The notes under the pieces: generated by a model
What the model was told of the DNA's origin: nothing
Seen by the model: only the letters and a program-made list of their open reading frames with translations
Databases searched by the model: none
Program-made: the position numbers and the translations under genes
Shown here: positions 28,001 to 52,000 of the stretch, piece by piece
Position numbering within the stretch: position 1 is the first letter of the stretch
Layout: each line of letters opens with the position of its first letter
Assembly (NCBI RefSeq): GCF_006345805.1
Contig: NC_042997.1
Location: forward strand, 164,362,001-164,426,000
From: Octopus sinensis
Lineage: Eukaryota
Reading direction: 5' to 3'
DNA: 64,000 nucleotides

Positions 28001-31000
28001 ATTGGGTTTTGCTGTTCTACTTCCTACTTCAAGTTCTTTACCTTTTAGTCTGAATCCAGAACATTACTTTGTGTATAATTACTGTAATAAAATAGATAAT
28101 GTTCCTAGCTTGCTCATCCGATATCCTTTATTGTTAACTTGTGTTCCCTAGATAATTTTAAACAATTTGATACTTTCCCATAATTTCAATGTGAGTGTAA
28201 AAAATGTAAAAATTTGGGTTAAAAATTGAAATAATATTTTATTTCCTTTCATTTTAGATTCGGGTTGATAGTTTCGACTACATTGGTGTTGGTAATTCAA
28301 CAAACAAAAAAGATTCCCAAGCAAATGCTGCTAGGGATTTTGTCCAGTTCTTAGTTCGGCAGGGACAGGTCCAACAATCAGAAGTGCCTACTGTAAGTAC
28401 ATATCTGGTCTTCAGTCTTTTAGAAAACTTTAAAAAAAGTTGTTTTTTAATTAACAATATTTGCATCTTAGATATGTCAAGTTTACATTAATATTCTATT
28501 ATTGTTAGCATTCTTAGAGATGTAGTGTATCTTCACAATTCATTAGGTTGTTTACTATATATATAATGTCCATCTTCCATGCAAGCATGAATAGGACTGT
28601 TGACAGGAGCTGGCCAGGTAGATGACTACCTTAGGCTACTGTGTCTGTTTTGCAGAGTTTTTGTTGCTGGATGCCCTTCCTAACACCAACCACTCTACTG
28701 AGTGGACCGAGTGTTTTTATGTGGCACCAATGTGTTTATATATAATAATAAATTAATGTTGATTAACATTTAAGAATTTTCACTGCAAGATCTTCATGTC
28801 AACTTCAGAATAGCTTTTAAATAGTTCTGTTTCGCCTGGCACCAGTGCAGGTGGCACGTAAAAAGCACCCACTACACTCATGGAGTGGTTGGCGTTAGGA
28901 AGGGCATCCAGCTGTAGAAACATTGCCAGATGAGACCGGAGCCTGGTGCAGCCTTCTGGCTTCCCAGATCCCCGGTCGAACCGTCCAACCTATGCTAGCA
29001 TGGAGAACGGACGTTAAACGATGATGATGATGATAATATATGAAGAAGCTGTTGACAGAAATATAATATGCATTGCTATTTTGTATTTCACCTCTTCAAA
29101 ATTGCTATTGTATGATAAATTAATAACTATGTGCATTATTAATGATATAAACTAGAAGACATTTAAAAATAAAATTTTAGCTAAGACCATGAATCACAAA
29201 TAATATGTAATGGTAAAGTACAATTTTATCAATTCCCTTTTGTATTCTTTTATCTTTCAGTTAACTGTTGGCATGGGTGCTGGGACAGCAGAAACTGTGT
29301 CTGGAAATGACACACCTGCAGATGATATGACTGATTCTGGAATATCTTCTGGTGGCTGTAAGTTAATTCTTTCTATACATTTCGATTTTAGAAAAAAACA
29401 GTTTGTTAATGAAGAATTTACTTTAAACAAATATCTTCTTTCTTGATAGCTTTCCCTGGATTAGACGCTAACAGAGACATTCCTGCTTATCAAAGGGGCC
29501 CACCAATGAGTTATTTGGACCGACTTGCAGAAAAAAGGAAATTGGAAGAAGTAATTATTTTTTTATCATTTTTCTTGATTTTTGCTGTCAGTGTCTACAT
29601 TAATTTACCATATTTAGTTGAAGTATTGAGTGTGAAGTGGTGGTGGTGGACTTGTTTCATAATTGTTCTCTGTTAAGTTTAGGGCAAGTGGAAACATTTT
29701 TTTTAGTTAAGAAGTTTAAATTTGCGACTACATAGTGCCAGGTTCAATCCCTTATGCTGTATCTTGTACAAATGCCTTCTACCATAGCCTTGGGCTGATC
29801 AATCCTTGTGAGTGAAATTTGGTAGATGGAAACTGGAAATAAATCTGAAGGATAAATCATGCTAGTACCACTGTCTGACCCTTGGGCGTCTTTAGCAGGT
29901 TTGATTGTTTTAAGAATTCAGCACAGTCAGCATTGGTAGCCCTAAAAAAGCTTAGGGTTTTATCCTACCTTCTCTGACCAAACCTACAAAAAACAAAAAC
30001 AAAAAAAAAGATGCAAATGTTGTGTGAGCTTTGTTTCCTTTTGTATTTGAATAAAATGGAAGACAAAGATCATATTCATATCAATATAATTTGAAAGTAG
30101 CTTTTAATGTGGTTATTTATTATAACTAATAGAAAATATTTCCATGTACAAGAACTTCCAATAATGTTTGGCAAAGAAGAATGGATCATTGATAGATAAC
30201 TATTTCATTTTATAGTAGTCCTGTAGCAATGAAGCAAGAACTAAATGTTTTGATATCTATTACCATATTTGTTTAAATACACTTTTGCTTCAGTTAACTC
30301 TTAGCTCTTAGTAAAAATTAAATAATTTTGCCATTATTAAAATGGGTTTTTTGTAACTTAGATTTTAACAGAATGTTTTAATTTAGATCATTTTAACCTT
30401 TTTGATACTAACCCATCTGAGATTGCCCTCTGGTTCTACATGATGCAAACTCCATGTTTAAAGTGATCTAAATTAAAAACTTTCATCAAAATGGACTGTT
30501 AATTTATGTTCCAAATACCAGCATAATAATGATAGTTATTTTTCTGTTCTCCATTAGTTTCAAAATTGAAACAAAAGCAGTGTAACAGAAATATGGAAAT
30601 GAAAGGGATAGTTTGTATCATAAAACTATAGATGATTTTTGATGGGTTGGTATGAAAAGGCTTTAAAAGCCTTTTATAAAAATTAGAATTATGATGATGA
30701 TAATGTTATTTTAGAGATGTCAGAAACTAAATATTTAGAAGGTTATATACTGACCTGACGCTAGTTGCACAAGCTGGTACTGGTTGTTATTTAGAACTAG
30801 ATTAACCCTGATCAAAGCCTTTCTAAGTTTGAATATCACTTTTTTTCCCTCTGCTCAAACATATTAACTATAGAACAATGTTGTCTAATATGTCCTTCCT
30901 GTTTTTTAAGACAGTAAAGTGAGATCGAGCAAGTTGAGCAACCATGTAAAGAATCTTTTTTTTTTTTTATTCGCTCTTAATGATATTAAGCTTAGATCGT

Positions 31001-34000
31001 TGATATTTGGAATATCTTTTTCTAAAGATGGGCACATTGCAGTTAGCTGGAATCTGTGATGGAACTAATAGATCTTTTTGCATAGAATATAGCACAAGTG
31101 AACTCGATCTCAGTTTTCGGTGACATGACACTGCTAATAATAAACCTAATTTACTTATGTTAGATATAATTTGGCTATTAGATTTCTCATTACTATTCTG
31201 ATTTTATTTCTTCAGTCAGAAGATCTTGACTTGAATGCGAGTATTCACGGCAACTGGACACTGGAAAATGCTAAAAGCAGACTCCATCAATTTCTGCAGC
31301 AAAATAAAATACAAGCTGATTATAAATATTCTATGATAGGTCCAGATCATAATCGGTAAGTTAAAATGTTGGGTATTGTTTCCTTGTGTTGAATCTCTAT
31401 TGACTCCTGAAAATTTTATTACTTTTTCATGAAATTTTGGGTTTTAAAGTTCAAAATTCTTAAACAGATTTTATTTCATGTGTAAACTACAAACTTAGTA
31501 TAACTTTTTCAACATTGGAATATATTTACGTATATTATATAGTAGTTACAAGTCATTCACTAGTATGAGTAAACAGTAAATTTAATGCTTATTTATAATA
31601 GCAGTAATTTAGTTAATTATAGTAGTTAGTCTTATATTTTTTCCATCTGATGAAAATGTAAAACAAAACAGTTGTACTTTTTTCATGTGTTCTCAATTAT
31701 ATATATACTTTTAAAAATTATTAACTTTGTTTTAATTTTCTCTCTTATAATCACCATTAGCAAATGTTAAGAAATACTAAAATAAACATAGTTTACCATC
31801 GCTACAAAATTTGCTCTAATTATGCAACTCTAATTTCTGGTTTGACTTAGAATTACATTCGTATTATTTTATTTTTAAGTTCCCATATCTCGTTTAAAAT
31901 TATTGAGGAATACTATCTTTTGCCAATAATTACTTTCTTGTCAAGATTTAAGACCAACTTTGTCAAAAAATTCTTTATATCTGCTATCTGTTGGTTTGTA
32001 GTCTATACTAGATTAATATTTAGTGTTTATTTTGTAATTAGTTAATTGGATTATTACATGATTTTTAATAGAAATAATTGTAAGATATTCCTCTGATCAT
32101 TCTTTGGAATTTTTATTGGTGGGGATTTCTTGTAATGGAACTTTTTTTTATATTTAAATAAAGTATTTTCTGTTAAATGCTTTCAATAAAGTTTGTTTCA
32201 GGAAACAATATTTATCTACAATGCTTGGGTCTGCTAAAAGAAAATGCATTATCTGCATGAAATATTTGTGAATGTTTGTGTCATTTTGTGTGTTAAGATT
32301 ATTTAAATTAAAAAAAAGTTTATGCTCGGTAAGATAATGTCTTAAGGTACTGGTAATTCTCTAGTTAACTATTTGACTTGTAATTTTAATCAGATTATTT
32401 AGATATAGTTACTGAAAAACACTATATTTCATTTAGAAATTTTATTCTTGGCTTTTTTTTTTTAACTCAATAGCAACTTAATACTTCTGGTGCAATTGAC
32501 TTGCTGTTGATGTTTGTTTAATCTGTTTATTATATATTTTGTAACAAATTATATTTGTAGTTTTAAAAAGTAAGGCCTAAAACTTAGTTTCTAAAAATAG
32601 TGATTAAATTATAATAATTGAATGAATTTAAAAAGAAAAATCTTTTGATCAAGGATTCTTTATTTGAAAGATTGAAAGTTCAGTTTTTTAAAACAATTTT
32701 TCAAAGCTTAGACTAATTAAAGTTTTCTTTTTTAATTGCTTAAATTTGCAAAATATTTCACCATTAGTCAATTTTGCTTTACAGCTTAAGTAAACAGTTA
32801 TGAAAAACTGAAAACAAAACAATTTAATGTTCTACATGTTTGTATAGGGGGTTGGCATAGGTGTAAAGGAATAGAAAGAGAAAATTTTAAAGAACTGTTT
32901 TGTGACTACCAACAAGAAGTGGTTCCACTGAATCAATGTATCAACACTAGTTTCAAATGTGTATAGAGTCTTGCACATATAGATTGTCCTATCTACTTTT
33001 CAAATAATGTAAGCAGTTCTGATGAATTTGAATGTAATTATTTTCTCTTGTAAAGACATCCCTAAACTAATACATAACAGTCTTTATGTTTATCTTTTAC
33101 TCATATTCTATTAGTCTCCTTTATTTTGGTCATCACTAGCAACTACCTTCACACATTTGTGTTAATACTACATCTTGAATAAAATTAACTTGGTGTTTTT
33201 TTGTTATTTTCTAAGACAGGAGTGTTATAATTATAGAATATTAAATTATCACTACTGTAAAAGTAGTGTTAATTTTATGTTCTTTTATATTTGTAAATCA
33301 GTGTTAAATTCTCTTGTTCCAGTAGACTCCTTGTTAAACCTTAAATTGATATTACATCCTAGTAACTCAGATGTTTGTATTTTTTAAAGATTTTTTACAT
33401 TGTTGTTGTTGTTTGTTCAACTGGTTTAATTGGCTTGTTTCAATACATGCTTTTTTTAATACTATAAATGAATAGATTTAGATTATTTATTCTCTAGCTG
33501 TTTGGTAGGTTACAACATCTCTACCTTTGGTAAGAAGCATGTCTAATTGTTGTTAGTGATGCTGTTAGTTTTGCTGTTTACACCTTGGTGCTGCTGTGCT
33601 GTCTGACCTGATATTTGCTAGACAACGCCTGCTTGCGTGGCTTTTTTCTATTAAAATGTAATAGAACTGAAATGACTACAGCTGCAAATAGCTAAAATGT
33701 AATTCGTCAGATTTACTGTTTGTTATACTCCTCTTTATTCATGTTGATAATAAACCAATATGAAGCATTTAATTTATTAAATATATAGAATATACAAGTG
33801 AAAGTTTGTATATTGATAGGAATAGTAGGCTTTCTGACATTTTCTCAAAATTCTTCTGGCTTTCAGTGTTGCTATAATTTCTATAATTTAACGGGTTTAA
33901 TAATGTAAGAAAGAAAGGTATTTTATTCTATTTATTCTATATAATTCAGTATTAACTTTCATTATTTAATAAGATTACAATCATGATTTGCCAGAATGAT

Positions 34001-37000
34001 GGATCAGTGGACTAGCTTTCTTGGTAGGTGATACTTTAAAGCATTTGGGGTATAATAATGGGTAAAATGTTTTTATTTAATGATGTAATAAATGTTAATT
34101 GTAATTTAAGTTGGTAATTTACATATGATATGGAATAGTCAAGCCAGTTACTGGTATTGTAATGTAAAATCAAAATAGGAATATTTTTTCATAAAGATAC
34201 ATTCTCAATTAATGTTAATATGAAAGAAAACATATTGTGTTGATGTAAAATTAGGATAAGAATGTGTTGCAATTTCTGGAATTAATGTTGACTAAGGACT
34301 ATATTTCAGTACTTTTGTCACATATAATTGAAACTTTATTACTACTTTAGAAAAAAAATTATACCAAATATAACTATGAAAGCAAGAAAAAATTTTTGAA
34401 ATGTCAAAAAGGAATTCATTCTGTGTAATATGAGCTTCCATAGATAGATGACATAGTGTAATTATTTCACTCATTAAAGCTAAGTGTTGTGTTTTTGCAA
34501 ATCAAGGAAAGTAATTTATTTATTAGCAAAATTTAGGAGACCTCATGAGAATTAGATCATGGAAATATGTTCAGTTTTCATTCTTGATCTTCAGAAACTA
34601 ATTCTGTTTAGAAGATGTCCATGTTCAGTATGAGTGGGGAATAGATGGTAGCAAGGCAATATTTTGCATGTTGTGCATCTTGAATGTTTGAGTAAATGAA
34701 TTCAGTTATTTTTGTAGTAAAAGTCCAAGTAAAACCAGAAATCTAATTCAAGGCTTAAGTTAATAAAAAAAAAAGACTATCTTCATTCAAATGTTAAGTT
34801 ACATAACCTTTGCATGCTGGAAGTATTTTGTTGTAAAAGAATGAAAATTCAGGACTTTCAGCAAGTGAAGAATAAGAAGAAACATAAATATATATTTATA
34901 TACACACAGGTTGTTTTAATCTTAAAACAGCTATTGGTTCTATAAAGTAAAACTGCCAATGTTAGCATGTTCACATTTAATTTAATACCTTTCACCATAA
35001 TCTTATATGAGCTTTGCTTCATGGTGAAAACTTATTTTATTTAATTACTAAAAATTCCTGATTATTTTCAAATTGAAACACTTAGTGTATGTCAACAACA
35101 TAAAAGGTAATGAGAGGTAAAAAGAAGACAACTGAAAATGACTGCCTGTTCTAAATGAGAGTTTATTATACAAGTGAAAGTTGCTAAAATGGTTTACTAC
35201 TGCCTGGTTTGGTTGTGTGTCTGAGTAACTGTCTGAGAAAATAGCTAGTGTTTGATTTTAGTGGTAATTATGCTAAAGGTAAGTCATGGAATACTTGAAA
35301 TATATGGCTTAAAAAGTTTGCGTTAAGAATGGAATAAGTAGGATGTGGTTGTATGACCATTTTATAAAAGTATTAAAAATAATTGTTTCTTTTTTCTAGC
35401 TAGATCTTATTCCACAAAATGAGATTATTTGTTTTAATTTAAGGCAAACTGATTTTACATTGACTAGTTATTTTCATTTCAATTTTTAATTAAAAAAAAA
35501 AAATTAACATCAACTTCTTGCATTCAATTTGAAAACAAAAATGCTATATGGATATGTTTAACACCTATTTTTTTTTCTAATCAATTCTTTAAAAGCATAG
35601 TTTCTAATATATTTTCTTTCCCTCTCGATTCCCTCTTTCTGTGGTTCTATCAATGCAGTGAGTTTGTCTTTACAGTACTCTTAGGTTGCACAGCTACAAG
35701 TGCCTGGACTTGCAACAACAATATTTAATAATCTGTGGCACTGAAAGACTGATTTCCTTTTCAGTCGTTATGCCACTGAAACCGACGACAGTATCATTCT
35801 TATTAGGTTTGTCCCACAACATTTATCAATTTGGATTATTTAGTAATCATAGCCAAAGCTCATAAAAGTAATCTGCTGAAAATTTTATTCTGTTTTATTT
35901 TTATATGAAAATATTCTGTTTTCTATTTCTTATACTTTTCTATTTTCTATTTAGACATTTATTTTTTCTAAAATGTTATTTTTAAAAAAATGTTTATTAT
36001 ATGCTACTCTATATACCAAGAACAATATAGAAAATATGTAATTGTATATGTTTATAGACTTTAAGAAAACATGCATTCAAATCTAACTCATAATATTTGT
36101 TGCTCATAGGTGCTGTTTTATTTTTCACTATTTGTCCTAATTAAATGGTATATTTAAATATTTTCAATGTGTATTAGAAACTTAAAGGTTTTAGTAGTTT
36201 TAAAATGAGTTCATGCTATATTTAAACATAAAATTTGATCATCTTAAGGATTTTAACTCATGAAGTTTGAACAGTGCCATTAGGAAGTTTATGCTGGTTT
36301 TGCACATAAATATTGTGGTCCCACTTAATCATAGTTACAAGAATGATAATTATTTCTTTTGTCAAAATACAAGGCCATGTTTGTGCTCAATGTAATTCAT
36401 TCAATTTCTTGCCTGTATTTGTTTAACCCATAAAAATTCTAAATAGAATCAAATATTCAGGTACCAAATTACATTGGTATTGTTTCCTATCCTTCATGGG
36501 CATAAATCCTGAGATTTTTAAGAAAGGAGGAAATTAAATGTTTTAAAACATTCAAGAATTGAAATCGAGTCACAGGCTCCGCTGGCCAAAAATTTGACTA
36601 TACTCAATGATTCTGGCCAAATGATAATGACTATGATGACGTGAAAACAATGGTGCTGCTGTTTCAAAATTGCAGTGCTACCCTGTTAATAAAATTAAAG
36701 AATATATATAAAAAAGGAATTTCAAGAATTAATTATTTGAAATTCTAAATTCATTACGTTGATACGTAGTAGCTCCTCTTGATCATCTTCCTCTATATTA
36801 TTGTTTAAATGTTGGGTGTTTACTTAGTAATTGTATCTGCTTTCAATTTTTTTCTGTCATTAGTTGATTGAAAAGTTTGTGGCATATTCTGTATCATTTT
36901 TACTGGCCTTTCTGCATGAAAATAATTTCAGTTTGGTAAAGATAATCTACATTTTAGCGCAATGCCATCAGCTGAATATGTCCTGTTAATCACTTTTGAT

Positions 37001-40000
37001 AAAACACTAATATTAATCCTCATATTAGAAATTGACACATTAGATTCTATGCCCTGATTTTTTTTTGATTTTTTTACTTTGGTTAACATATCTACAGCAG
37101 ATTGTTAGAGCTTTGAGTAAAAGAAACAACCAATACATTGTCTGATACTTGTTGATAATGTTATAATTGTCTACATTTGTGTTTGTTATGTTAGTGGCAA
37201 GTATCTTTCAGATGTATTATTTTTTAAAAATAAGTATTGCATAATAAGTATAACTTATTTTTCTGTTGCTGCTAATGCCAGTTATTAACATTTCCATTTA
37301 GTAAGTAGAACATGATTATATCAGGTCTTATCATTGTAATGTTAAAACAATTGTTATATTACCTTGTAATAAATTAAGAAGACTAGGAAAGTTAAATTTC
37401 CTGTTGTTAGCTTCCTTAAAAATTGGAATACTTACAATAAAATGCCATTATATACACTTACAGATATTGGTCTTGTTGGTTGTTAAATAAAAAAATTTAA
37501 AGCTGCATCTTGGTTTCAACAGAACTTTTGCCAAGTTTGCAAAAGAAAAAAAAAACTGAAAATCAGTTGGGTAAAAATAACACTTGTCATTTAATTTTTT
37601 TTTTCATATCAGCTATTTAAAATGAGATAGCTATATTTAATGTAGATCCTTGTGAAGTTTTATGAATAAGCAGTAATAATAGAAATAAATAGCTTAATGT
37701 ATTGGTGTAATAATCATTGTTGGTTGGTAGATTTTGAAGTCTTATACTATTCTATGATGTATGAAGATGCTATCAATCTGTTATTATTGACTTGACAAAT
37801 AGATTACTCTCTTTACGAAGTGATTTCTGAAAAAGAAAAAAAACCCAAAAAACCATTATTGTATTACATGGAAGGGATTGACTTTGATAATTGGAACAGG
37901 TAATTGTCCTTTATCCAGTAATTTTTGCAAGTGTCTGTTGAAAATATTGTGTAGATTAATGCAGTACTCATACAAAGGATATGCAATTATACAAACCACA
38001 CACACATACACAAAATATGATATACAGAGCAACAGAGTTGCCTAGTTTTTCTCTATTACTGTGTGTTCCAGATGCAAAAGATCTTTTGAATGGTGAAGCA
38101 TTATGAAACTCAACCAACTTGGGAAAAATGAACATAAAATTTATGTCTGTGTGTTTGTATTTAGTTTACATATGAGCACAAAACCATGATGTTGTCTCAT
38201 AACATACTTTTCTGTAGCAACTAGACATTTTGATTAAAATTTCCTGTTTCTGCAGGTAAATAAATAATAAAAAGCTGTGGAACAATGAAAAATAGAAAAT
38301 TATCAACAAAATAAGGTGTTTAGAAGGGAAAAGAACTGAGTATGCATGGTATCCAATTTTATAAAATATTTTGTGCATACTTATTTTTATTAATCCTTTC
38401 CTTATCTTTATATTTTTAAACACCTTGTTTTGTTTGTAATTTTCTGTTTCTGCCTTGTTACTTTTATGTTATTATAGTTGATTATTAATGTGGATATGAC
38501 AACCAAAAAATGAAATTTTAATTTGGCCATTGAGTTATTGATTTCATTTGATTTGTATTTCAACTACAACTGTAAACAAAATAAATTGTTGATAACAAAT
38601 GAGTATGCATCTGAAATATTAAAGATAGTCCTATTATAGTTTGAGGTAATGATTCGAACAACACCACATTTACTTTTTTTATATATTTCATTTAAAATTA
38701 ATGTGATTACTTGAAATATTTGGTTATGGAACAAATGAAAGTAATAAGCATTCAGGTTACAAGAAATGGAGGATTTGGCAGGGCTTTTTCATTGTGCTTA
38801 ACTGAATTCCACATTTTATATTAATGTAGATCTTTCAAAATAGGATAATGCATGCAAATTCAGAGTTCTGGCAATGTAAATAAATTCAAATACTATTATA
38901 GGTATTAGCTAAAACAGGTATTAAATAGTGCTTGTTTTATTGGCTATGCATGACTAGGATGACAAGTGGTTTTACTACTTATCTTTAATGTTATCAATTT
39001 TTATAATTTTAATGTTTTCATAGCCATTTTTTTAGTTATTTATTGTGACCTTTGTTTGCTATTTGTTTAAAAGGATTTGACCTTATTTGGTATTTTCATC
39101 TCAACTAAAATAAGATTTATCTGTTGAAAATTGACAAAGAAATCTAAAAACATTAACCAAGTGAGTGGTATCACTCTCATGGTAATGGATGTTCATTTGT
39201 TAATAAGTCTGATACTGTCGTTGTTTGACCCTTGTCCTTTTACCATGCAACTTAACTTACCATCATGGCGTTTAACCCAGAAAATTTCATTGCAAGAAAC
39301 AGCTTTCTACATGAAACATTTGAAGTGTGCAGCTCTTATTCTATAACATTAAGCTGGCATTATGCATGCTGTGGTTTCCAGACATAATTTAATTTCCTTA
39401 ATGCTATTTTAAGTTTCAAAAATTTTCCTTTAATATGAAATGATTTGAGATATTATAAGAATGTCTTAAAATTTGTTCCAGTAATCACTTAATGATAAGA
39501 AATTCATAAAGTTATTTTGTATAAATTCTTTGTGTCTGGAATATGGTTTAATATCTGTTAAGTAAATCTATGAATGATGATTAAATATACTATATAGTAT
39601 ACCTTACCATTGTGTTTTCCAGACTAAAAGGAGATTGTTTTATGCTACATTATCTGTAATATCAACAGATCTGATATATTAGATCTACTTATATTAAATA
39701 TAAATCCTCTCTCTCTCTCAAAAAAAAAAAAAACTTTTTTAGTGATTTGTAAAAGGACAAAGGAATGCATATTGCAGCTTAAAAGAAAAAGTTCTGTAGA
39801 ATTTGAGGTGCATTCTTCTGAGATTTTTTTTATGTTGAGTTGATTTCTTGCCATAAAATTTAATTTTATCTTAGCCAATTTTCTTACCTATAGAAAATCT
39901 AAGATAAAAGAAAAAAAATTGTTCAATTATTTGTATGCACTAAATGCATACATAAATATTAAATATCTAAGATGGTAAAGTTGCAATTCTTCACTGATTG

Positions 40001-43000
40001 TTTGTCCTGTATTCCTGCTGTAGTGGGATGGATTTTTTATGTCCCCCACTAGAGCAGTAAAGGGCTTTAGAAGGGTTAATATATTTGTTTGTCTGTCATG
40101 CAGCAGGCACTCATAAAGTTGTTGCAGTCGTTGCCTCTCGTTCCTCCTCAACAGAATCTTACCATTGTGGCACTTGTATGCTGTGCAACCCAACTGCGTG
40201 TCTTCCTTGCTAGTTAAAGACAGCCCTGTATCTTCTCAGGTAAGTTATTTCCTGCTCTGCAGAAAACTGCAGCCCTTTTATTTCAGCATTATAGTGTACT
40301 ACAAAGGAAACCAGCTGGAAAAGAATAAAATAACGCAGTCATATTTATATATATTCTCTTCTGCAAAGATTCTTATTGTTTGAAAATGTTCTATCACAGC
40401 AGTACAGTCACTTAGACAATTCCACTACTTTTTAAAAAATTTTTTTTATTTTTACCTTCTTTGTATTAGCTGATATTAAATATTTTATTTTCAAATCACA
40501 AAGATGGATAGCTCTGAAAAGAAGCATTTATCACAATAATACCTTCTATTGAAATAACTGTTTTTAATTCATTTTTATCATCCTTTTTTTTTCTATTTTT
40601 TAAGTTTGAAGTTAGTTTCATCTAGTTAATTTTTAAAAGAATTAATATTGCTTTCATCTAAAAGTTAACAAAACTGAAATATTTATTGGGCTGTTACACC
40701 TGATTTGGTGAAGTTGAATGTTGGAAGTGAGTTTTAAGAGTGAAATTGTAATTTCTCCTCCCTTATGCTTTAGATGCAGTCTATTGATATGCTAAATTCT
40801 TACAATAATAATTGTATCTTTAGGAGATCAAATATAAAGATCTTTGTTTAAGTACTCTGGCAGTTTATGCAAAAGACTCTGCAGGTTTTTGGATAAACTA
40901 TTATTGCAGCATTATCATCAGTCCTACTAGAAATATTCTATTGCTATTTGGAGCAATAATTTTGATTTTTCATCTTTATATATATATATATATATCATAC
41001 AACTTCTCAAAATTTAAGTACAAGAAATTTCTTCTTAGACTCCTTAAGTTACAAATCATTATAAACATTTTCATTTAGGAACCAGCCTTGAAACATTTTG
41101 AATGGTTTCAATAAACAAATTTGCCACTAAAATACATAATTTTTATATTTGTTACAGTTTATCACAAACTTTATTCAGCAGTCTTTATTTCACTTCCTCC
41201 AAACAAACTACTGAAAATATTGGATGTTTAATCAGTAGGTCTCAAGCAGATGAAATGGGTGTTTTGCTTGTATGTATGTATTTATGTGAGTGAGTGAAGT
41301 GGATAACTGGTGGAATACATTGTTATGAGGTGTTTTTAAATAACTAACTTATTAATCTCAAATTGTACAAAGAAACATTAGAATTATTTCACTAAGTAAG
41401 AGTAAAATATTGTTTAAGGACACAGCAAATGGAATGGTCAATTTATTCTGGTGTGCACCTGTTAGCTTGATAAACTTAGATTTAAATATTGATGAAATAA
41501 TTCTTTGAAATAAGGTAAATATGATTTAGCTTGTTTTTCTGCAACAAAATGCAAAATAATTCGAAAATATCTTAATGATGCCTGGGATTTTTTAAAATAT
41601 GTAAATAGTTTTCATTCTGTTTCATTTTAAATGAAGTGATCAAAAATGGATTTAAAGTTCCTAGTTATTGAGTATTTAAGTAGTAATGTTTCCTGTATCA
41701 ATTCTTGTGTAATCACAAATGTTATGCTCTATTGCTTCCACAAATAATTTTTACTCAGAACCCTAAAGTAAGCCACAGTCTGATCATTCAACCAGCTAGA
41801 AATATCCCCTATATAACATTCTACCTAAGTAATGAAATGACATATTAGATAATGTACCCCAAGATAACTTGGATGTAGTTGGCATTAGGAATAATATAAA
41901 GCTATTAAGAGATTTTTTTCTAAATATTTGATAACTTGCTCGTCTAAAAAAATACCATTCAAAGTAATCTAAGAGCCTGGCTACTTGGCTCATTTTAGGA
42001 AAATGATGTTTGAAATCCTTTCTGTAAGAATTATTTTGTAGTAGAATATTATCTTCTTATTTTTTTCTGGCAATAGTCCAGATGAAAAGAGTTGATGTAA
42101 CATATTAGTGCTTATTAGGAGAAAAATCAATTCACTTGAAGCGCATTTTATATTTGATTTTTTATCTTTTTAGCTATTTTTGCATTAAGTGTTGTAAGAA
42201 TTATTTGATGGTTTGGTTGTAGCTGAATAGTAACTACTCAATTACTGGTTTCGATAATTGTTAAGTTTACGAGATTGTAATGAAATTTGATTAGTGCTTA
42301 TCTTTTTAAATAAATGCTTTCAGTTGTTATTTATTAATCATCTCTAATCAAACAGACTGCTTATGGTAGTGGTTAGTTTGATAGCAGCAATGGCTCAACA
42401 TATTAGATCTACTCTTTTTTTTTTTAACTTATTAAAGTTTAGTGATAGGGATTGCTATGTGAATGACTTCTTTGCCTTCAGAATGAAAGGAAGGTGTGGA
42501 AAATAAAGCTTTTAGAGTTCTCATTTCATAGCATTACGACATACGAATGCATAATAATGTAATGTCATTCCATTTGTTCTCTAATGCTAAACCAAGTACT
42601 TATTTATTGACTAGATAGATTCAAGACTATTTTATTTGACCTGGTACGTGTTGTTTTTAGTTTAAGCAAGTTTTAACGATATATAAATATTCATTCATTC
42701 GTACCAAGGGCGATAAATATTAGAAATACCAAGAGGAGTTTTCTCCCCATCTCGTTGTTATATTGGGTCATCCTATAAATAATGTGGCTTTTTCAATTGC
42801 ATGAAAAGCCGGAGGAGGACAGGATATATACCTGCATCAACTTGCTATAAATGCAAGTAGCTATTTTACCTTGTCCTTGTTTCTGCAAATTTTGAAGAAT
42901 GCTGTTCGATTTTAGCAGTTACTTTTTTAAAGCTCTAATGGAAGTGACAAAGCATATTCAGCCTATTTTGCTTTATGAGTTCAGTAAAGTTAATGCACCA

Positions 43001-46000
43001 GAAAGTGCAGGGAATATTAATGCAGTATATGGGGATTGGACATTAAGTGTAAGCCAGTGTCAATGGTGGTTCCAGAAGTTCTGAACCAGGAACTACAGCC
43101 TGGAAGATCTGTGGAGTTTGATGAGGACAGCCTGCAAATCTTGGAACAAAATCCCATCATAATTGTTGAGGAACTAGCAGAGTAGCTTGAATTTGGTCAT
43201 TCAACCACTGATCAACACTTGCGTGTCATTGGAAAAGTCAGCAAATTGGATCAGTGGGTTCCTTACAAACTTTCTGAGTCTAATCACATGGAGAGACTGA
43301 ATGTGTGCTCTTCTTTGCTGTCATGTCTCACAAATGAAGCTTTTTGGGACCAAATAGTGGACGGGTGACAGGTTCTCTATAAAAGTGTTGGGCACTGAAA
43401 ACTGGGAAAAGGAGGAACACCAACACCCCAGGCTAAAATTATTCACCCACATAAGGTGTTATCTGTTTGGTGGAATATGAAAGGTTTAGTCCACCTTGAA
43501 CTTTTAAATCCAAATCAAATGATAACAAAGGAGATATACTGCAAGCAGCTTAAGTAGGCGCTAGAAGTAAAGCGACCATCTTTGGTTCCAAGATGAAAAG
43601 TGAATGCTCGGTCACATAGAGCGAGGATGACATTCCATAGGTTGGAGCAATTTAAATGGGAAAGTATGCCCCACCTACCATATTCGCCAGACATTACTCA
43701 TCTGATTATCATGAATTCTGTAGATGAGGTCAGAACAGTACTGGAGGAGTATTTTTCGTCATGGACAAGTGAATTTTGGAAGAGCATTGTAAAAAATGAA
43801 GTAGATTATATTTTAGAGCAAAAAAGAATTTTGTTTATCTTAATTTTGAAAAGTAAAAGAAGTATAAGAAAACCGCGTTATTTATGGAGAAAAGGATTAT
43901 CGAAAATGTTGGTTAGCCTACGCATTTTACTGTTTTTAATATGTGCTTTGGGAAAAAGAAGACTATATATTAAGTGTGGTATGGATCTATACATCAGGAA
44001 CCTAGCACATTAAATTTACTAGAATTTTTTTTTTTTACTGGCCCCTAACAATAGATGGTGGGGTGTTGTCTTGTGTGTGTATGTACCTGGTATATGAAAG
44101 TTGTGGAGAGCATCTGCATATACTGCTGTGAATTGGTTTAGTAAATAGTTTCTGTGTTTGAATGTTTTGAAACACTTTAGATTTTAAGAGAAAATATAGA
44201 AAAGCTGGTCTTATTTAAATTCCACACTATCTTTGTGAGGATGTAGAACTTTTAGCACTTGGAAGTGTAATCAAGTTTATGGATTTGTATAGCTTTCAGT
44301 ACCAATGCTTTGGTGCAGTCCTCCGAGATCTTCCAGATTTTAATTACTGCTTTTTCATGTTTTTATTTGTCCAGTATTTCAGTTGATACATAGAAGCAAT
44401 TTAGGTCTGTTGTATTGCTTCCATTTCATCAGTGAAGTTGGTATTATAAAGTGCCTTTTGAGAGGAGTAATTTTATTTGAAAACTAAGAACAAGTATCTT
44501 TTGACTGGTTGTTGTTTTCTAAATATTCTCAAGATTCCATCCTGCTAGTAGTTTGCAAATTGTCATATTTCATTAATATAACTCTGTAATAGTAACATTA
44601 CTTGTTATCTGTATGTGTCACCTGGATTCTGATTAGGTATTGCATTACCTTGTACATCTACGTTGCAATGTGTTACAAGGCTCATAAGGAATGTGTTGTT
44701 TCCATCAAATCAGTGTCTTTCTGTAGGTTTTTGACACCATTGAGACTCTTATTTACTTTTGATATTTTAATGTTATTGTTAGTAAAGATGGTAGTTCTGA
44801 GTAACCAGGGTTATATTTCAGAGAGCTGTTGAAATCAGCTTTACAAATATTTGAAGTTTTAAGTTTAGGGATGGAGTTATCTTCTAGAATATCTCAAAAG
44901 CTTTCTGTTTAAGTTGCATCTTTCATTAGAAGAAAAAGAAAAAAGTATTTGGTTTTTGGTAGCTATAAACATTTCTAACACATTGAAATTATGGTGATTA
45001 CAAAGTACTGAATTAGACTTGATCTGCCTTGAAGTTCTTTTTTTGTTTTTAAGATTTAAATAAACTATTATTGAAGAAAGAATTCAAAAACGATATAATC
45101 AGTGATCTACTTGCTTTAAAGATAGGTCAGCCAAACCTTTTTATTTTTCCTTTAGCATCAATGTGGCCTTTGTTTTATTTTTTATGTAGAAAATTTTTAA
45201 TTCTATAAACCCTTTTGAAGACTTGTCAATGTAGCAGTGTTTTTGAATCCTTAAAATTTTCATAATCAAAACCGTGCTCATTCTAAAATAGCATTTTCAT
45301 GTGTGCATGTATATGCACATGTGTCTATGGGTGTAGTGTGTATGTATGTAAGTTGTTTGTGTGTGTACATGTATGTGTACTTGCATGTGTACAGGTGGCC
45401 CATAAATTGGCTTAATATATAATATTATAGTAATGCTATATATATATTACATATATATATATATAAAGCATAATTTTTCCTGCATTCTTGCTTTCATTGT
45501 TCTTGTTATATTAAATTTGGTTCTTGGATAGATCTTTTTCTTTTGTTATTAACATTCTTATCTTATTGTTCTTTTGTAGGAGCTTCATTGCCGAGATGAA
45601 AATCTATGTCAAATCTATTGGGAAGCGTAAGTATTTTAAAAGAATTAAAGATGTTTCTTTTATTAATGTTATATATTTTTCTGTTTTATAGACTGATTCA
45701 AAATGTAACAATGCTTTACAATTTTATTTCAAAATGTCCAAGCAGCTAAAATCTTTAATGCCCATTTGACGAAAAGAAAAACATTCTCATGTATAATTAT
45801 TTATAACTACTTTTTAACTTTCATTTGATTTTCTTTTTTTCTTTTCTCTCTCATGTTAGATGTATCATCACGAGAGCATGGTTCAAATAAACAAGTGGCT
45901 TCCAAATCATGTGCTTTGTCTTTGGTGCGCCAACTCTATCACATGAATGTTATTGAAGCTTACACCGGTTTGAAGAAAAAGAAAGATGCTGATAAGGTAT

Positions 46001-49000: not shown

Positions 49001-52000
49001 ATTATAAATCCAGAAAGATGCATTTGTAAAATTAGTTGTACAGAATTAAAATGGAACCTACAAATGTATAATATAGTGATGCAGTATTAACTGTCTCTTA
49101 GATGTTGTTTACTGTCAAGCTAACTCTGATCAGATGAATCCAGCTGTGATCATCCTGTCATTTTATGACTATCTAGGAATAAGGCTTGAAAGTTATTGGT
49201 TGGTTATATGTTTACTTATTACCATTAATATAAAAAAAAAAGTATGTTGAAACAATAGATCCTTCCAGAAATGCTTTTTTTTTTTCATCAAATTGGAGTC
49301 AATAAAAGTACCTGTCAATTTTTAGGGGCAGATTTAATTAACTCCCCCTGTCTATTCATATGACTTTGCATCGGTTAGAAGTGATTATTATTTATTTATT
49401 TTCTGTGATTATTGTTATTTAGGCCTCAATGGAACAAATCAGTCAGGATGTGTACCGGTCACTAGAAGAACAGAGAGCCAATGATAGAGATCTTCAGGCT
49501 GTAAGTCCTCATTGCTTAATTGCATATGTTACTATATTTTTATGTCTGAGACTATATATCTTTATTGCTAATAATTTTGGCAATAAACTTGTATGTTAAA
49601 TAATATTTATTTTGAAAATATTAAATGTCGATAGGTTTTAGTTCAATTATTTGAGCATTGATTCCCTTTTTTGTTAATGTTGCCATGAATCAATTTAAGC
49701 AGAATCAACACCAATGAACTTGTGTTAGTATAGCATTTTAACTTTACTATCATATTTTCCATACTCTTAACATTTTCTTGTGAGAGTCATACATGTGGAA
49801 AGAATTAGAAAATTATTATTTTTTAGCAGGTGTTTGTTAAATGAAGCATAGATAATCTATTCCAGTATGACTAAAATTAAATGTCAATACACCATTATAA
49901 TATTTTTTTTAAACATCTTTCATTGAATTTTTCCTGTCTTCAGATGCTCCATGATCGAAGCAAGTTACCTATCAATCAATCTAGAGATCATATTGTACAA
50001 GTTATTAAATCTTCCCCGGTTGTTCTCATAAGAGGAGAAACTGGATGCGGTAAAACAACACAGGTAATTGATTCTGTTCTTTTATTTGTGAAAGAAATTA
50101 AAAAATTACTTGGTGCAAATTGAGATTGCAAAATGTGCAAGTAAAAGTAAATATGCAGGTTTAAGTGCTCTTATTGCTCACATGGTCAAATCACAAGTCA
50201 AACTTTAAAATATAGGTACTGAAAGATGATGATAGTCCTTTTAGATATTGTGTCTTATAAGAAAAAAAAATGGTTGTGGCTGGAAGGCTTTGAATGGATG
50301 AGATTGAATGAATATTTGAAAATTTCATATGTAAATCCCAATTTTTATTGCCTTAACCCTCTCATGACTATATTTCTGACCAAAATACACCCTTCATGAG
50401 TTCCAATTAAATTCTAAAATAATCATGAATTTAGACTGGTTTCATTAAACAACTGTAACTTTTTTACTTATAAACATATTAATATGACATTTAGAACATA
50501 ATTGAAGAAAGGGTTCTTAATCAATTCTGTTGCATAATTTTTGTCTCAAAGTGACTCTAATTAGAGGTAAACTGAGCAAAATGTAAAAATATTTAAATTT
50601 TGTTTAAACATTACCATAGAAAATGAGTCATCGGTTAATATTCATTTGGGTATGCAATAAAATTTTGATATAGAATTGTGTACATCAATAGATTATCAGT
50701 TGAATTTAATGCACAGAAGAACAGGTGTACCATAAAGGTAGAATAAACTGAAATACTAGAATTTGTTTTTGAAAAATGAAATATACTCACACACATACAT
50801 GAATACACAGGAACATATATAACAAAGATTTACAATAGAAATTAAATCACACTCACCTTACAGGCAAATTAAAATAAAAAGTGAAACAAAGTAAATTTGA
50901 AAAGTATTATTTATACAATCTATTATACATATATACAATATTTCTATCATGGAAAGTTGTAAAACATCCCACTCTACATACTGCAACCTTGCAGAATACA
51001 CATTGGAAAGATGTTTCAATTGGCCATCCACTGGGAGTTTTTCTTTGTAGTAGTAGACATTCGTTACATTGCCTTTTGTCCCCTCCCCCATTCCCCCCCC
51101 TCTAATTTATGAAGATCAGCAGAGCTCAAAGGGATATCTCTCTGGCAGGCTTTGCTTTTCCTTCTTGGAGTTATTTTCTGGGAGGAATAACCTGCCCACA
51201 ACTGCGTTGCTACATCTGCTTGGAACTGCAGATGGTCGCACTGCTTGTGAGCCCCTCCTGATTTGGTATATAATATAAATGCATTTACAATGCTCATGTT
51301 TACTATATACCAAACCAGGTATCGCCACCATTTATACCCATTCTACCAACCGGATAATAACTCATCATATGGTTCAGCCGATCCACACCGCCCATGTACC
51401 TGTTATAATCAAGGTTCACAAATGGGGTGCCATTTTCATCTACACATGGTTGTGCACTGGTAGATATAAAATTTATCTGCCTCTTATCTCTGTATGCGGT
51501 CGCTAGCAGATTTCCTTTCTGCCATTGGATTATTTCACCTCTTTTTTTTAAATTTTGCTTTTACTATATCCAATGGCAGCCCTTTTCTACTAGCAATTAC
51601 TGTAGCACACATATGTCTAAATCCATCGCAAGTTTGTCCAAACTAAAAAAATCAATCAAAAAATAATGTACGGCCCTGGTTATGGTATGGAAGTGATGAA
51701 TTCCAGATCACATCGTACCCTAGGCCATGTTGACTAACATTATTGTCTCTTTTCCCTGTATAAAAACTAAATCCACAGCAGTACCCAGTATTTGCTTCGC
51801 AAATTTTCCAAACTTTGATCCCCCATTTCATGGGCTTTCTTGGCATTTACTGTCAGAAGCGTACCCTTCCTTTATATTTCACCATGCCCTCATCAACGGG
51901 TAAGTATCTCTCAGGGTTGTAAAATATTTTATATGCATTTTGAATGCAATCGATGAGGGGTTTTATTTTACATAAGGGGTCAAAGTTTGGTTCTCCGCGT

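Follow-up and report, generated by a model that had tools for sequence, protein, structure and literature searches.

Unproductive splicing of the gene encoding the RNA helicase DHX9 (RNA helicase A; maleless, or mle, in flies) is known in human and fly, and poison exons linked to RNA structure are a known kind of regulatory element. A window of 64,000 nucleotides of Octopus sinensis DNA (the whole stretch analysed, to which all coordinates below refer: contig NC_042997.1 of assembly GCF_006345805.1, positions 164,362,001 to 164,426,000 of the forward strand) contains the DHX9 gene on its + strand, and one intron of this gene carries a predicted long-range duplex over a predicted poison cassette.

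According to the accessible portions of the cited papers, to which statements on published work are limited throughout, human DHX9 exon 6A contains a stop, is stabilised on UPF1 knockdown and is more included when RNA polymerase II (Pol II) slows (PMC4741636), is repressed by hnRNPM and SRSF3 (PMC7072589), and is termed a well-known poison exon in a later paper (PMC12809107). The octopus element resembles exon 6A in the gene, the intron position and phase, the stop within the second double-stranded RNA-binding domain (dsRBD2) and the logic of nonsense-mediated decay. It differs in that the cassette peptides show no evident likeness, and in that the accessible parts of PMC4741636 and PMC7072589 report neither a long-range duplex nor self-regulation. 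In Drosophila, productive mle splicing requires Zn72D, and in its absence part of the stop-bearing intron 2 is retained (PMC2680859, PMC5861047). Here the gene is orthologous, the helicase level is again set by unproductive splicing, and the human orthologue of the regulator, ZFR, has a preference for double-stranded RNA (dsRNA) and conserved paired introns (bioRxiv 2022.06.15.495552). The fly does not use a cassette, however, but a different 5' splice site through which intron 2 is partly retained, and the accessible text of PMC2680859 describes no RNA structure.

For BRD2 exon 3b and BRD3 exon 5b, a link between poison exons and long-range pairing within introns has been described; the structures there are of independent origin, and control by them was demonstrated by mutagenesis (PMC10789245), whereas in octopus it is proposed. 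Additionally, unproductive splicing of SRSF5 is retained in one gene across animals (PMC4379411). In contrast to the BRD genes, the octopus layout has one arm inside the cassette and is found again in distant animals, in a single orthologous intron. As BRD proteins are not RNA helicases, their genes lack a direct loop between product and substrate; SR proteins recognise sequence motifs, whereas the recurring feature in DHX9 is a duplex with sequence turnover. As far as literature searches reach, two things are new: a long-range duplex over a DHX9 cassette, and its return in the corresponding intron of distant animals although the sequence has been replaced. These searches found no report of a duplex or of self-regulation in this intron; supplementary tables of the papers on pairing and on ZFR may list pairs or events in DHX9 intron 6, the human counterpart among them, and "DHX9" is absent from the main text of PMC8052449 and of bioRxiv 2022.06.15.495552.

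The host intron of octopus DHX9

The DHX9 gene, with exons from about 18.9 to 63.4 kb, is recognised by two N-terminal dsRBDs, a DEIH helicase core, an HA2/OB fold and an RGG tail, and its residues agree with named Octopus proteins. The coding exon at 31216..31355 (+) encodes the first half of dsRBD2, ends at GPDHN-R in phase 2 and is the counterpart of human exon 6, as judged from a human junction primer. It is followed by a GT-AG intron of 14,224 nt (31356..45579, +), the counterpart of human intron 6, which interrupts dsRBD2 at GPDHN-R|SF and contains the whole element, and by a coding exon of 47 nt that begins SFIAEM (45580..45626, +). The splice 31355>45580, in which the cassette is skipped, is present in contigs of both RNA-type sequencing runs mapped to the window, X16 and X20.

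A long-range duplex and its predicted fold

The first-pass annotation of this stretch had proposed a core duplex across 4.5 kb with collinear flanking helices. Its main helix is borne out: 35684-35704 and 40169-40190 form 21 Watson-Crick pairs with one bulged T, and all eight sequence strings that it quoted lie where it placed them. The second helix, 35707-35719 with 40118-40129, has the 12 pairs and one bulge described. The proposed outer flanks, 35664-72:40215-23 (-7.8 kcal/mol) and 35654-58:40226-30 (-3.1 kcal/mol), fared otherwise, being absent from the minimum-energy fold of three islands and also from the two-segment cofold that the annotation had suggested. Local hairpins at 35660-80, 40199-222 and 40225-40 form in their place in the three-island fold, and the two outer helices are probably unformed.

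The complementarity goes beyond chance, as had been estimated. The main helix (helix A, -37.6 kcal/mol) has the lowest energy of 1923 inverted-repeat matches in the intron, and none of 100 block-wise shuffles preserving local dinucleotide content reached so low a value (best values: mean -23.7, standard deviation 2.7, minimum -31.2 kcal/mol). Each arm region has a single match, itself, in the 2.72-Gb genome of the species at E<=10, in a search that skips very common words, and a repeat origin is therefore rejected. An Rfam family or a transposon-derived inverted repeat was also considered and rejected, since no Rfam family matched at the gathering score over 33000-43000 (four matches, E 0.8-4.8) and there are no extra genomic copies.

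Joint folding of three islands at 35.7, 39.2 and 40.1 kb, a prediction in which the long spacers are omitted, gives four nested, non-crossing long-range helices (A to D) and two hairpins, all on the + strand; helices C and D and both hairpins go beyond the earlier annotation, which also leaves the host gene and the link to human exon 6A unnamed. Helix A (arms 35684..35704 and 40169..40190, the latter within the cassette) has pair probabilities of 0.99-1.0, and helix B (35707..35719 and 40118..40129; -14.7 kcal/mol) contains in its 3' arm the CAG at 40125-27, a possible acceptor for an exon starting at 40128. Hairpin H (35732..35779) lies between the 5' arms of B and C. Helix C (35783..35806 and 39200..39223; -28.3 kcal/mol) is found by the inverted-repeat scan and by the three-island fold, and helix D (39225..39240 and 40059..40079; -16.7 kcal/mol) is predicted only, with values of 0.94 and 0.59. 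The 3' arm of D, preceded by hairpin E (40015..40057; -23.9 kcal/mol), lies over a TTAAT ahead of the acceptors 40104/40107, which we take to be a branch-like motif and putative branch site. Folded singly, the islands are unremarkable (z +2.05, -3.13, -0.25 and -0.29) apart from hairpin H (35725-35815, z = -3.1); their G+C content is 37-44%, versus 29% for the intron. Within the loop of helix C, at 38284-38449, there is a long A/U-rich local hairpin (-53.7 kcal/mol), possibly an editing substrate or a small inverted duplication.

The predicted poison cassette

The 3' arm of helix A sits inside a predicted cassette that ends at the best donor of the intron. This donor, CAG|GTAAGT (40237..40245, +), scores 13.1 bits with matrices built from the gene's own splice sites and ranks first among the 860 intronic GT dinucleotides; with the exon end at 40239, it outscores all 24 constitutive donors of the gene (4.8-11.8 bits). 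On the acceptor side, the 39-nt loop between the two main helices contains, as the first-pass annotation claimed, a pyrimidine tract and an AG (40153-54), which would define a cassette of 85 nt (40155..40239, +) with a +1 frameshift and a stop in the exon at 45860-45996. The start of the cassette is unsettled, because this acceptor is weak (1.6 bits, rank 106 of 749), while 40107, in the tandem AG pair 40104/40107, is stronger (7.0, rank 24 of 749). The non-repeat long-range duplex tied to a candidate exon stands, and the exon start proposed at 40155 is one of four candidates. The longest predicted form (40104..40239, +; 136 nt from 40104 or 133 nt from 40107) meets an in-frame TAA within 10 nt, and acceptor 40128 would give a cassette of 112 nt. 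The 12-bp helix, said to cover AG dinucleotides, covers one whole AG (40126-27). With any of the four candidate acceptors, the predicted cassette has 3n+1 bases and a premature stop results. This stop falls within 10 nt or else in the second exon downstream, >50 nt upstream of a later junction in each case, and many exons follow.

Other splice-like signals also occur in the intron. A long pyrimidine tract in 35600-35663, one of only four such sites in the intron, ends in TGCAG right before arm A; the TGCAG overlaps a donor-like GCA|GTGAGT (acceptor 6.4, donor 9.1) and is a possible second cassette boundary, with a stop after 22 codons if used. More strong unused donors lie at 35278, 37899 and 39160.

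Sequencing runs under five organism labels show a nearly unchanged 3' island. Of the 24 listed runs, 19 contain every one of the 12 31-mers sampled from 40095-40250, and one more contains a share of 0.75; the five labels may be synonyms, the runs were ranked by containing this stretch, and the four rows with a share of 0.00 are uninformative. The listed contigs diverge from the window by 5.7-13.5% for label E and by about 2-6% for label A, and the chance of 100-156 unchanged nt is <=0.002 at label E rates of at least 5.9% and 0.0003-0.08 at two label A rates. For the 5' island, relatives offer a single well-covered 500-nt depth bin, in label E (35.2 vs 12.4 and 4.9 beside it). Inclusion of the cassette in octopus is predicted from the splice signals, from this conservation, from a truncated O. 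bimaculoides isoform (X2, which begins just after the GPDHNR|SF junction) and by analogy. One peptide search with cassette frames gave two multi-stretch matches of 36-37% identity, and another gave none. A protein of the P0001 cluster, P0030, reads MLKAR and then SFIAEM, i.e. another exon is joined at the junction; MLKAR has no match in this intron of the window.

A parallel layout in other invertebrate loci

Of 80 loci of the exon recovered in a scan of metagenome contigs, 69 were parsable: an intron lies at the GPDHNR codon in 56 and is missing from 13. Intronic blocks that pair across distances of 0.6-2.9 kb are common to one group of related loci, which is closer to molluscs than to the vertebrate and spider proteins compared. 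Within it, 17 loci retain both arms, near-duplicates and single-arm loci being excluded. In each of these a 5' island (an arm, a hairpin and mostly a second arm) pairs with a cassette of 65-103 nt, the 3' arm consisting of the cassette acceptor and the first 35 cassette bases. Examples are L045 (5' arm 1251-1282, poison cassette 2020-2087), L016 (709-740 and 2290-2364) and L065 (1026-1061 and 3926-4012). The cassette donor is conserved (CAG|GTGCGT in 16 of 17), and all 17 cassettes are poison, including the six of triplet length, all of which contain stops. The hairpin that follows the clade's 5' arm is also conserved, with one- and two-sided changes of its own.

Covariation accompanies this layout. 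Across 15 loci, the outer helix has 184 paired cells out of 195 and three both-side changes, one of them ambiguous, and arm swaps reach this in 4 of 5000 trials; for both helices together (13 loci), 302 of 312 cells are paired against a swap mean of 296.5 (1 of 5000). The both-side changes occur in L048, L064 and L065, with L012 ambiguous. Two further loci with an intron after GPDHNR, L020 and L067, have a common helix that differs from that of the clade and carries both-side changes between them, and a consensus donor follows the 3' arm in L018, L067 and L082. The core of the L020/L067 helix equals the clade core except for one central C/G swap, and is followed by a shared purine-rich motif.

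Of 33 loci, 23 have a strong inverted repeat in the 1.2 kb that follow the exon (15 of the 17 clade loci and 8 of 16 others, two of them without the intron), compared with 9 of 26 control windows upstream and 1 of 8 placed 4.5 kb downstream. Four loci with the intron have no strong repeat in its first 1.2 kb (L029, L032, L049 and L080). Shared inverted repeats also lie 0.3-1.2 kb upstream of the donor in the pairs L030/L033, L034/L040 and L037/L051, and other DHX9 introns may thus be structured. The loci without an intron at the codon, by loss or because they are transcript contigs (L010, L011, L013, L014, L015, L019, L026, L041, L043, L073, L074, L076 and L078), are natural controls for DHX9 regulation in its absence.

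The same intron in vertebrates, molluscs and fly

In the human exon 6-6A junction primer, G-P-D-H-N plus two bases of R precede exon 6A (PMC7072589 supplement), which places the human poison exon at the same codon and phase as the octopus intron. Cassette-type tails at this junction are found in 9 of 56 short DHX9 products, of mammal, amniote and fish type: three match the 6A primers (one from Apodemus), three are related to these and three are fish-type (one from Gasterosteus). Most of the other short products are canonical or resemble intron read-through, and are uninformative. By eye, the vertebrate cassette peptide tails show no likeness to any octopus cassette frame. Fish-type and amniote-type tails (P0083, P0094, P0095, P0098, P0100 and P0102) share SLAEKHTG or its shifted frame, a stretch that is a candidate conserved arm or motif of vertebrate intron 6.

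Six mollusc protein clusters cover 10 named species, 8 of which have an isoform that begins with the first Met beyond the junction; two of the six clusters were picked for that isoform, and one has 15 of its 25 members listed. Extra sequence is present at the junction in three oyster proteins (P0044, P0049 and P0052), apparently one DNA stretch in three frames, and a fourth, P0051, ends exactly at GPDHNR. In the fly, mle intron 2 is presumably the same intron, an assumption based on a short form of 226 aa.

Proposed mechanism and alternative explanations

The best reading of these data, and a likely one, is a structure-gated poison exon that tunes DHX9, with DHX9 itself and/or ZFR as the reader; folding in vivo, inclusion of the octopus cassette, the direction of the effect and the reader protein are the parts of it that we infer. 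The 5' island (arms A, B and C) would be transcribed 3.4-4.5 kb ahead of its partners, the 3' islands; once these appear in the transcript, helices D, B and A would close over the branch region, the candidate acceptor and the cassette body. With the duplex closed, the cassette would be skipped and full-length helicase produced; with the duplex open or unformed, the strong donor at 40239 would be used, leading to a premature stop inside dsRBD2 and nonsense-mediated decay. The likeliest readers would be dsRNA proteins, DHX9 unwinding the duplex in a negative feedback and ZFR/ILF2 stabilising it. DHX9 is an enzyme that unwinds double-stranded RNA, so feedback by its own activity would be the simplest reader, and ZFR fits as stabiliser because it prefers dsRNA and because Zn72D, its orthologue in the fly, promotes the productive splicing of mle. 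In the 17-locus clade, repression is favoured because the acceptor AG lies inside the helix, and the predicted octopus fold likewise favours repression of acceptors 40104/40107 and 40128.

Several observations weigh against this reading. The octopus islands have no sequence match in the 80 foreign loci (best E 0.18), so that the covariation seen there concerns an analogous helix and not the same one; moreover, 11 of 195 outer-helix cells are broken in the clade, and kinship among loci inflates the arm-swap tests. The enrichment of inverted repeats in the target intron is visible, yet neither clean nor independent. In octopus, the cassette alone, without pairing, would also keep the 3' island conserved. 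No joint into or out of the cassette is present among 15 of 143 joints listed, and the X20 contig listed over it (40017-40297) is unspliced; no protein with the cassette peptide was found in weak peptide searches, nor is the octopus form among the 56 short DHX9 products, also a weak test. If 40155 is the acceptor, its pyrimidine tract lies mostly unpaired in a loop, so that the fold might favour inclusion and not block it. Finally, the accessible parts of PMC4741636 and PMC7072589 credit the control of human exon 6A to Pol II speed, hnRNPM and SRSF3, and not to structure or DHX9.

The duplex could instead be mainly an ADAR substrate of the exon-complementary-sequence type, in which editing makes or destroys a splice signal and splicing follows. 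ADAR2 self-editing is reportedly a precedent for an editing-made splice signal, editing is known to be heavy in cephalopods, and long, nearly perfect, bulged helices 4.5 kb apart would suit this role, as would a regulation of A-to-I editing by DHX9, which the title of one paper states (PMC6125626). Every candidate splice site is, however, already canonical in the DNA, and the RNA contigs of X16, a poor test, show no A>G excess over the stretch (A>G 91, T>C 77, G>A 86, C>T 82), which leaves this explanation unlikely. Similarly improbable is a fold that governs intron retention or detention, or that shortens the 14-kb intron for correct splicing, the cassette being rarely used. The whole 156-nt stretch, intronic bases included, in many RNA-type runs, the unspliced contig 40017-40297, the end of oyster P0051 at GPDHNR, as expected from intron read-through, and the part of intron 2 kept in fly mle (PMC2680859) all accord with retention. 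On the other hand, it leaves aside the consensus donor beside the octopus 3' arm, the stop-bearing cassette that all 17 clade loci have between a conserved acceptor and a conserved donor, and the inserted-exon products of oysters and vertebrates.

It is very improbable that the pairing has no function and that a conserved cassette adjoins the remnant of an inverted duplication, or complementarity arisen by chance. Although stronger inverted repeats (to -92.9 kcal/mol) lie in other introns of the gene, their partners recur in the window, while the duplex arms are single-copy. Additionally, the pairing is divided into four nested helices among three islands, was matched by 0 of 100 shuffles, and has an independent covarying counterpart in the same intron elsewhere.

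Returning to the structure-gated poison exon, the recurring paired layout and the human exon together hint at an old RNA-structure switch for the DHX9 level. A broader proposal is that DHX9 senses its own unwinding activity through an intronic duplex over a poison exon. The loop would date back to early bilaterians, each lineage having since exchanged the paired sequences; ZFR would oppose it by stabilising the duplex, and human exon 6A would lie under an as yet undescribed duplex. This proposal is put forward tentatively, as possible rather than probable. If true, one physical mechanism could underlie human exon 6A and the Zn72D-dependent splicing of fly mle. In human DHX9, a duplex would then gate exon 6A, helicase inhibition would lower its inclusion and oligonucleotides against one arm would raise it; DHX9 inhibitors are reportedly under study in cancer cells. 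Furthermore, distant animals would offer a clear example of an RNA layout, but not its sequence, being retained in one intron, something that screens based on alignment would overlook.

Other repeats in the window

A near-perfect hairpin repeat resembling a miniature inverted-repeat transposable element (28666-28912; -92.9 kcal/mol) occupies a short DHX9 intron, with related copies near 81 and 19441, and further multi-copy inverted repeats lie at 202/3183/29011 and 4210/20999/25769. In the cassette-bearing intron, downstream of the cassette, 42581-44071 is an element of very high copy number (its depth reaches 46,700 in run X1 and is about 10 in X11) that is apparently absent or rare in label E; it contains an open reading frame fragment that we take to resemble a mariner transposase. 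On the - strand, 51064-51342 holds an open reading frame fragment presumably resembling the C-terminus of a piggyBac-type transposase.

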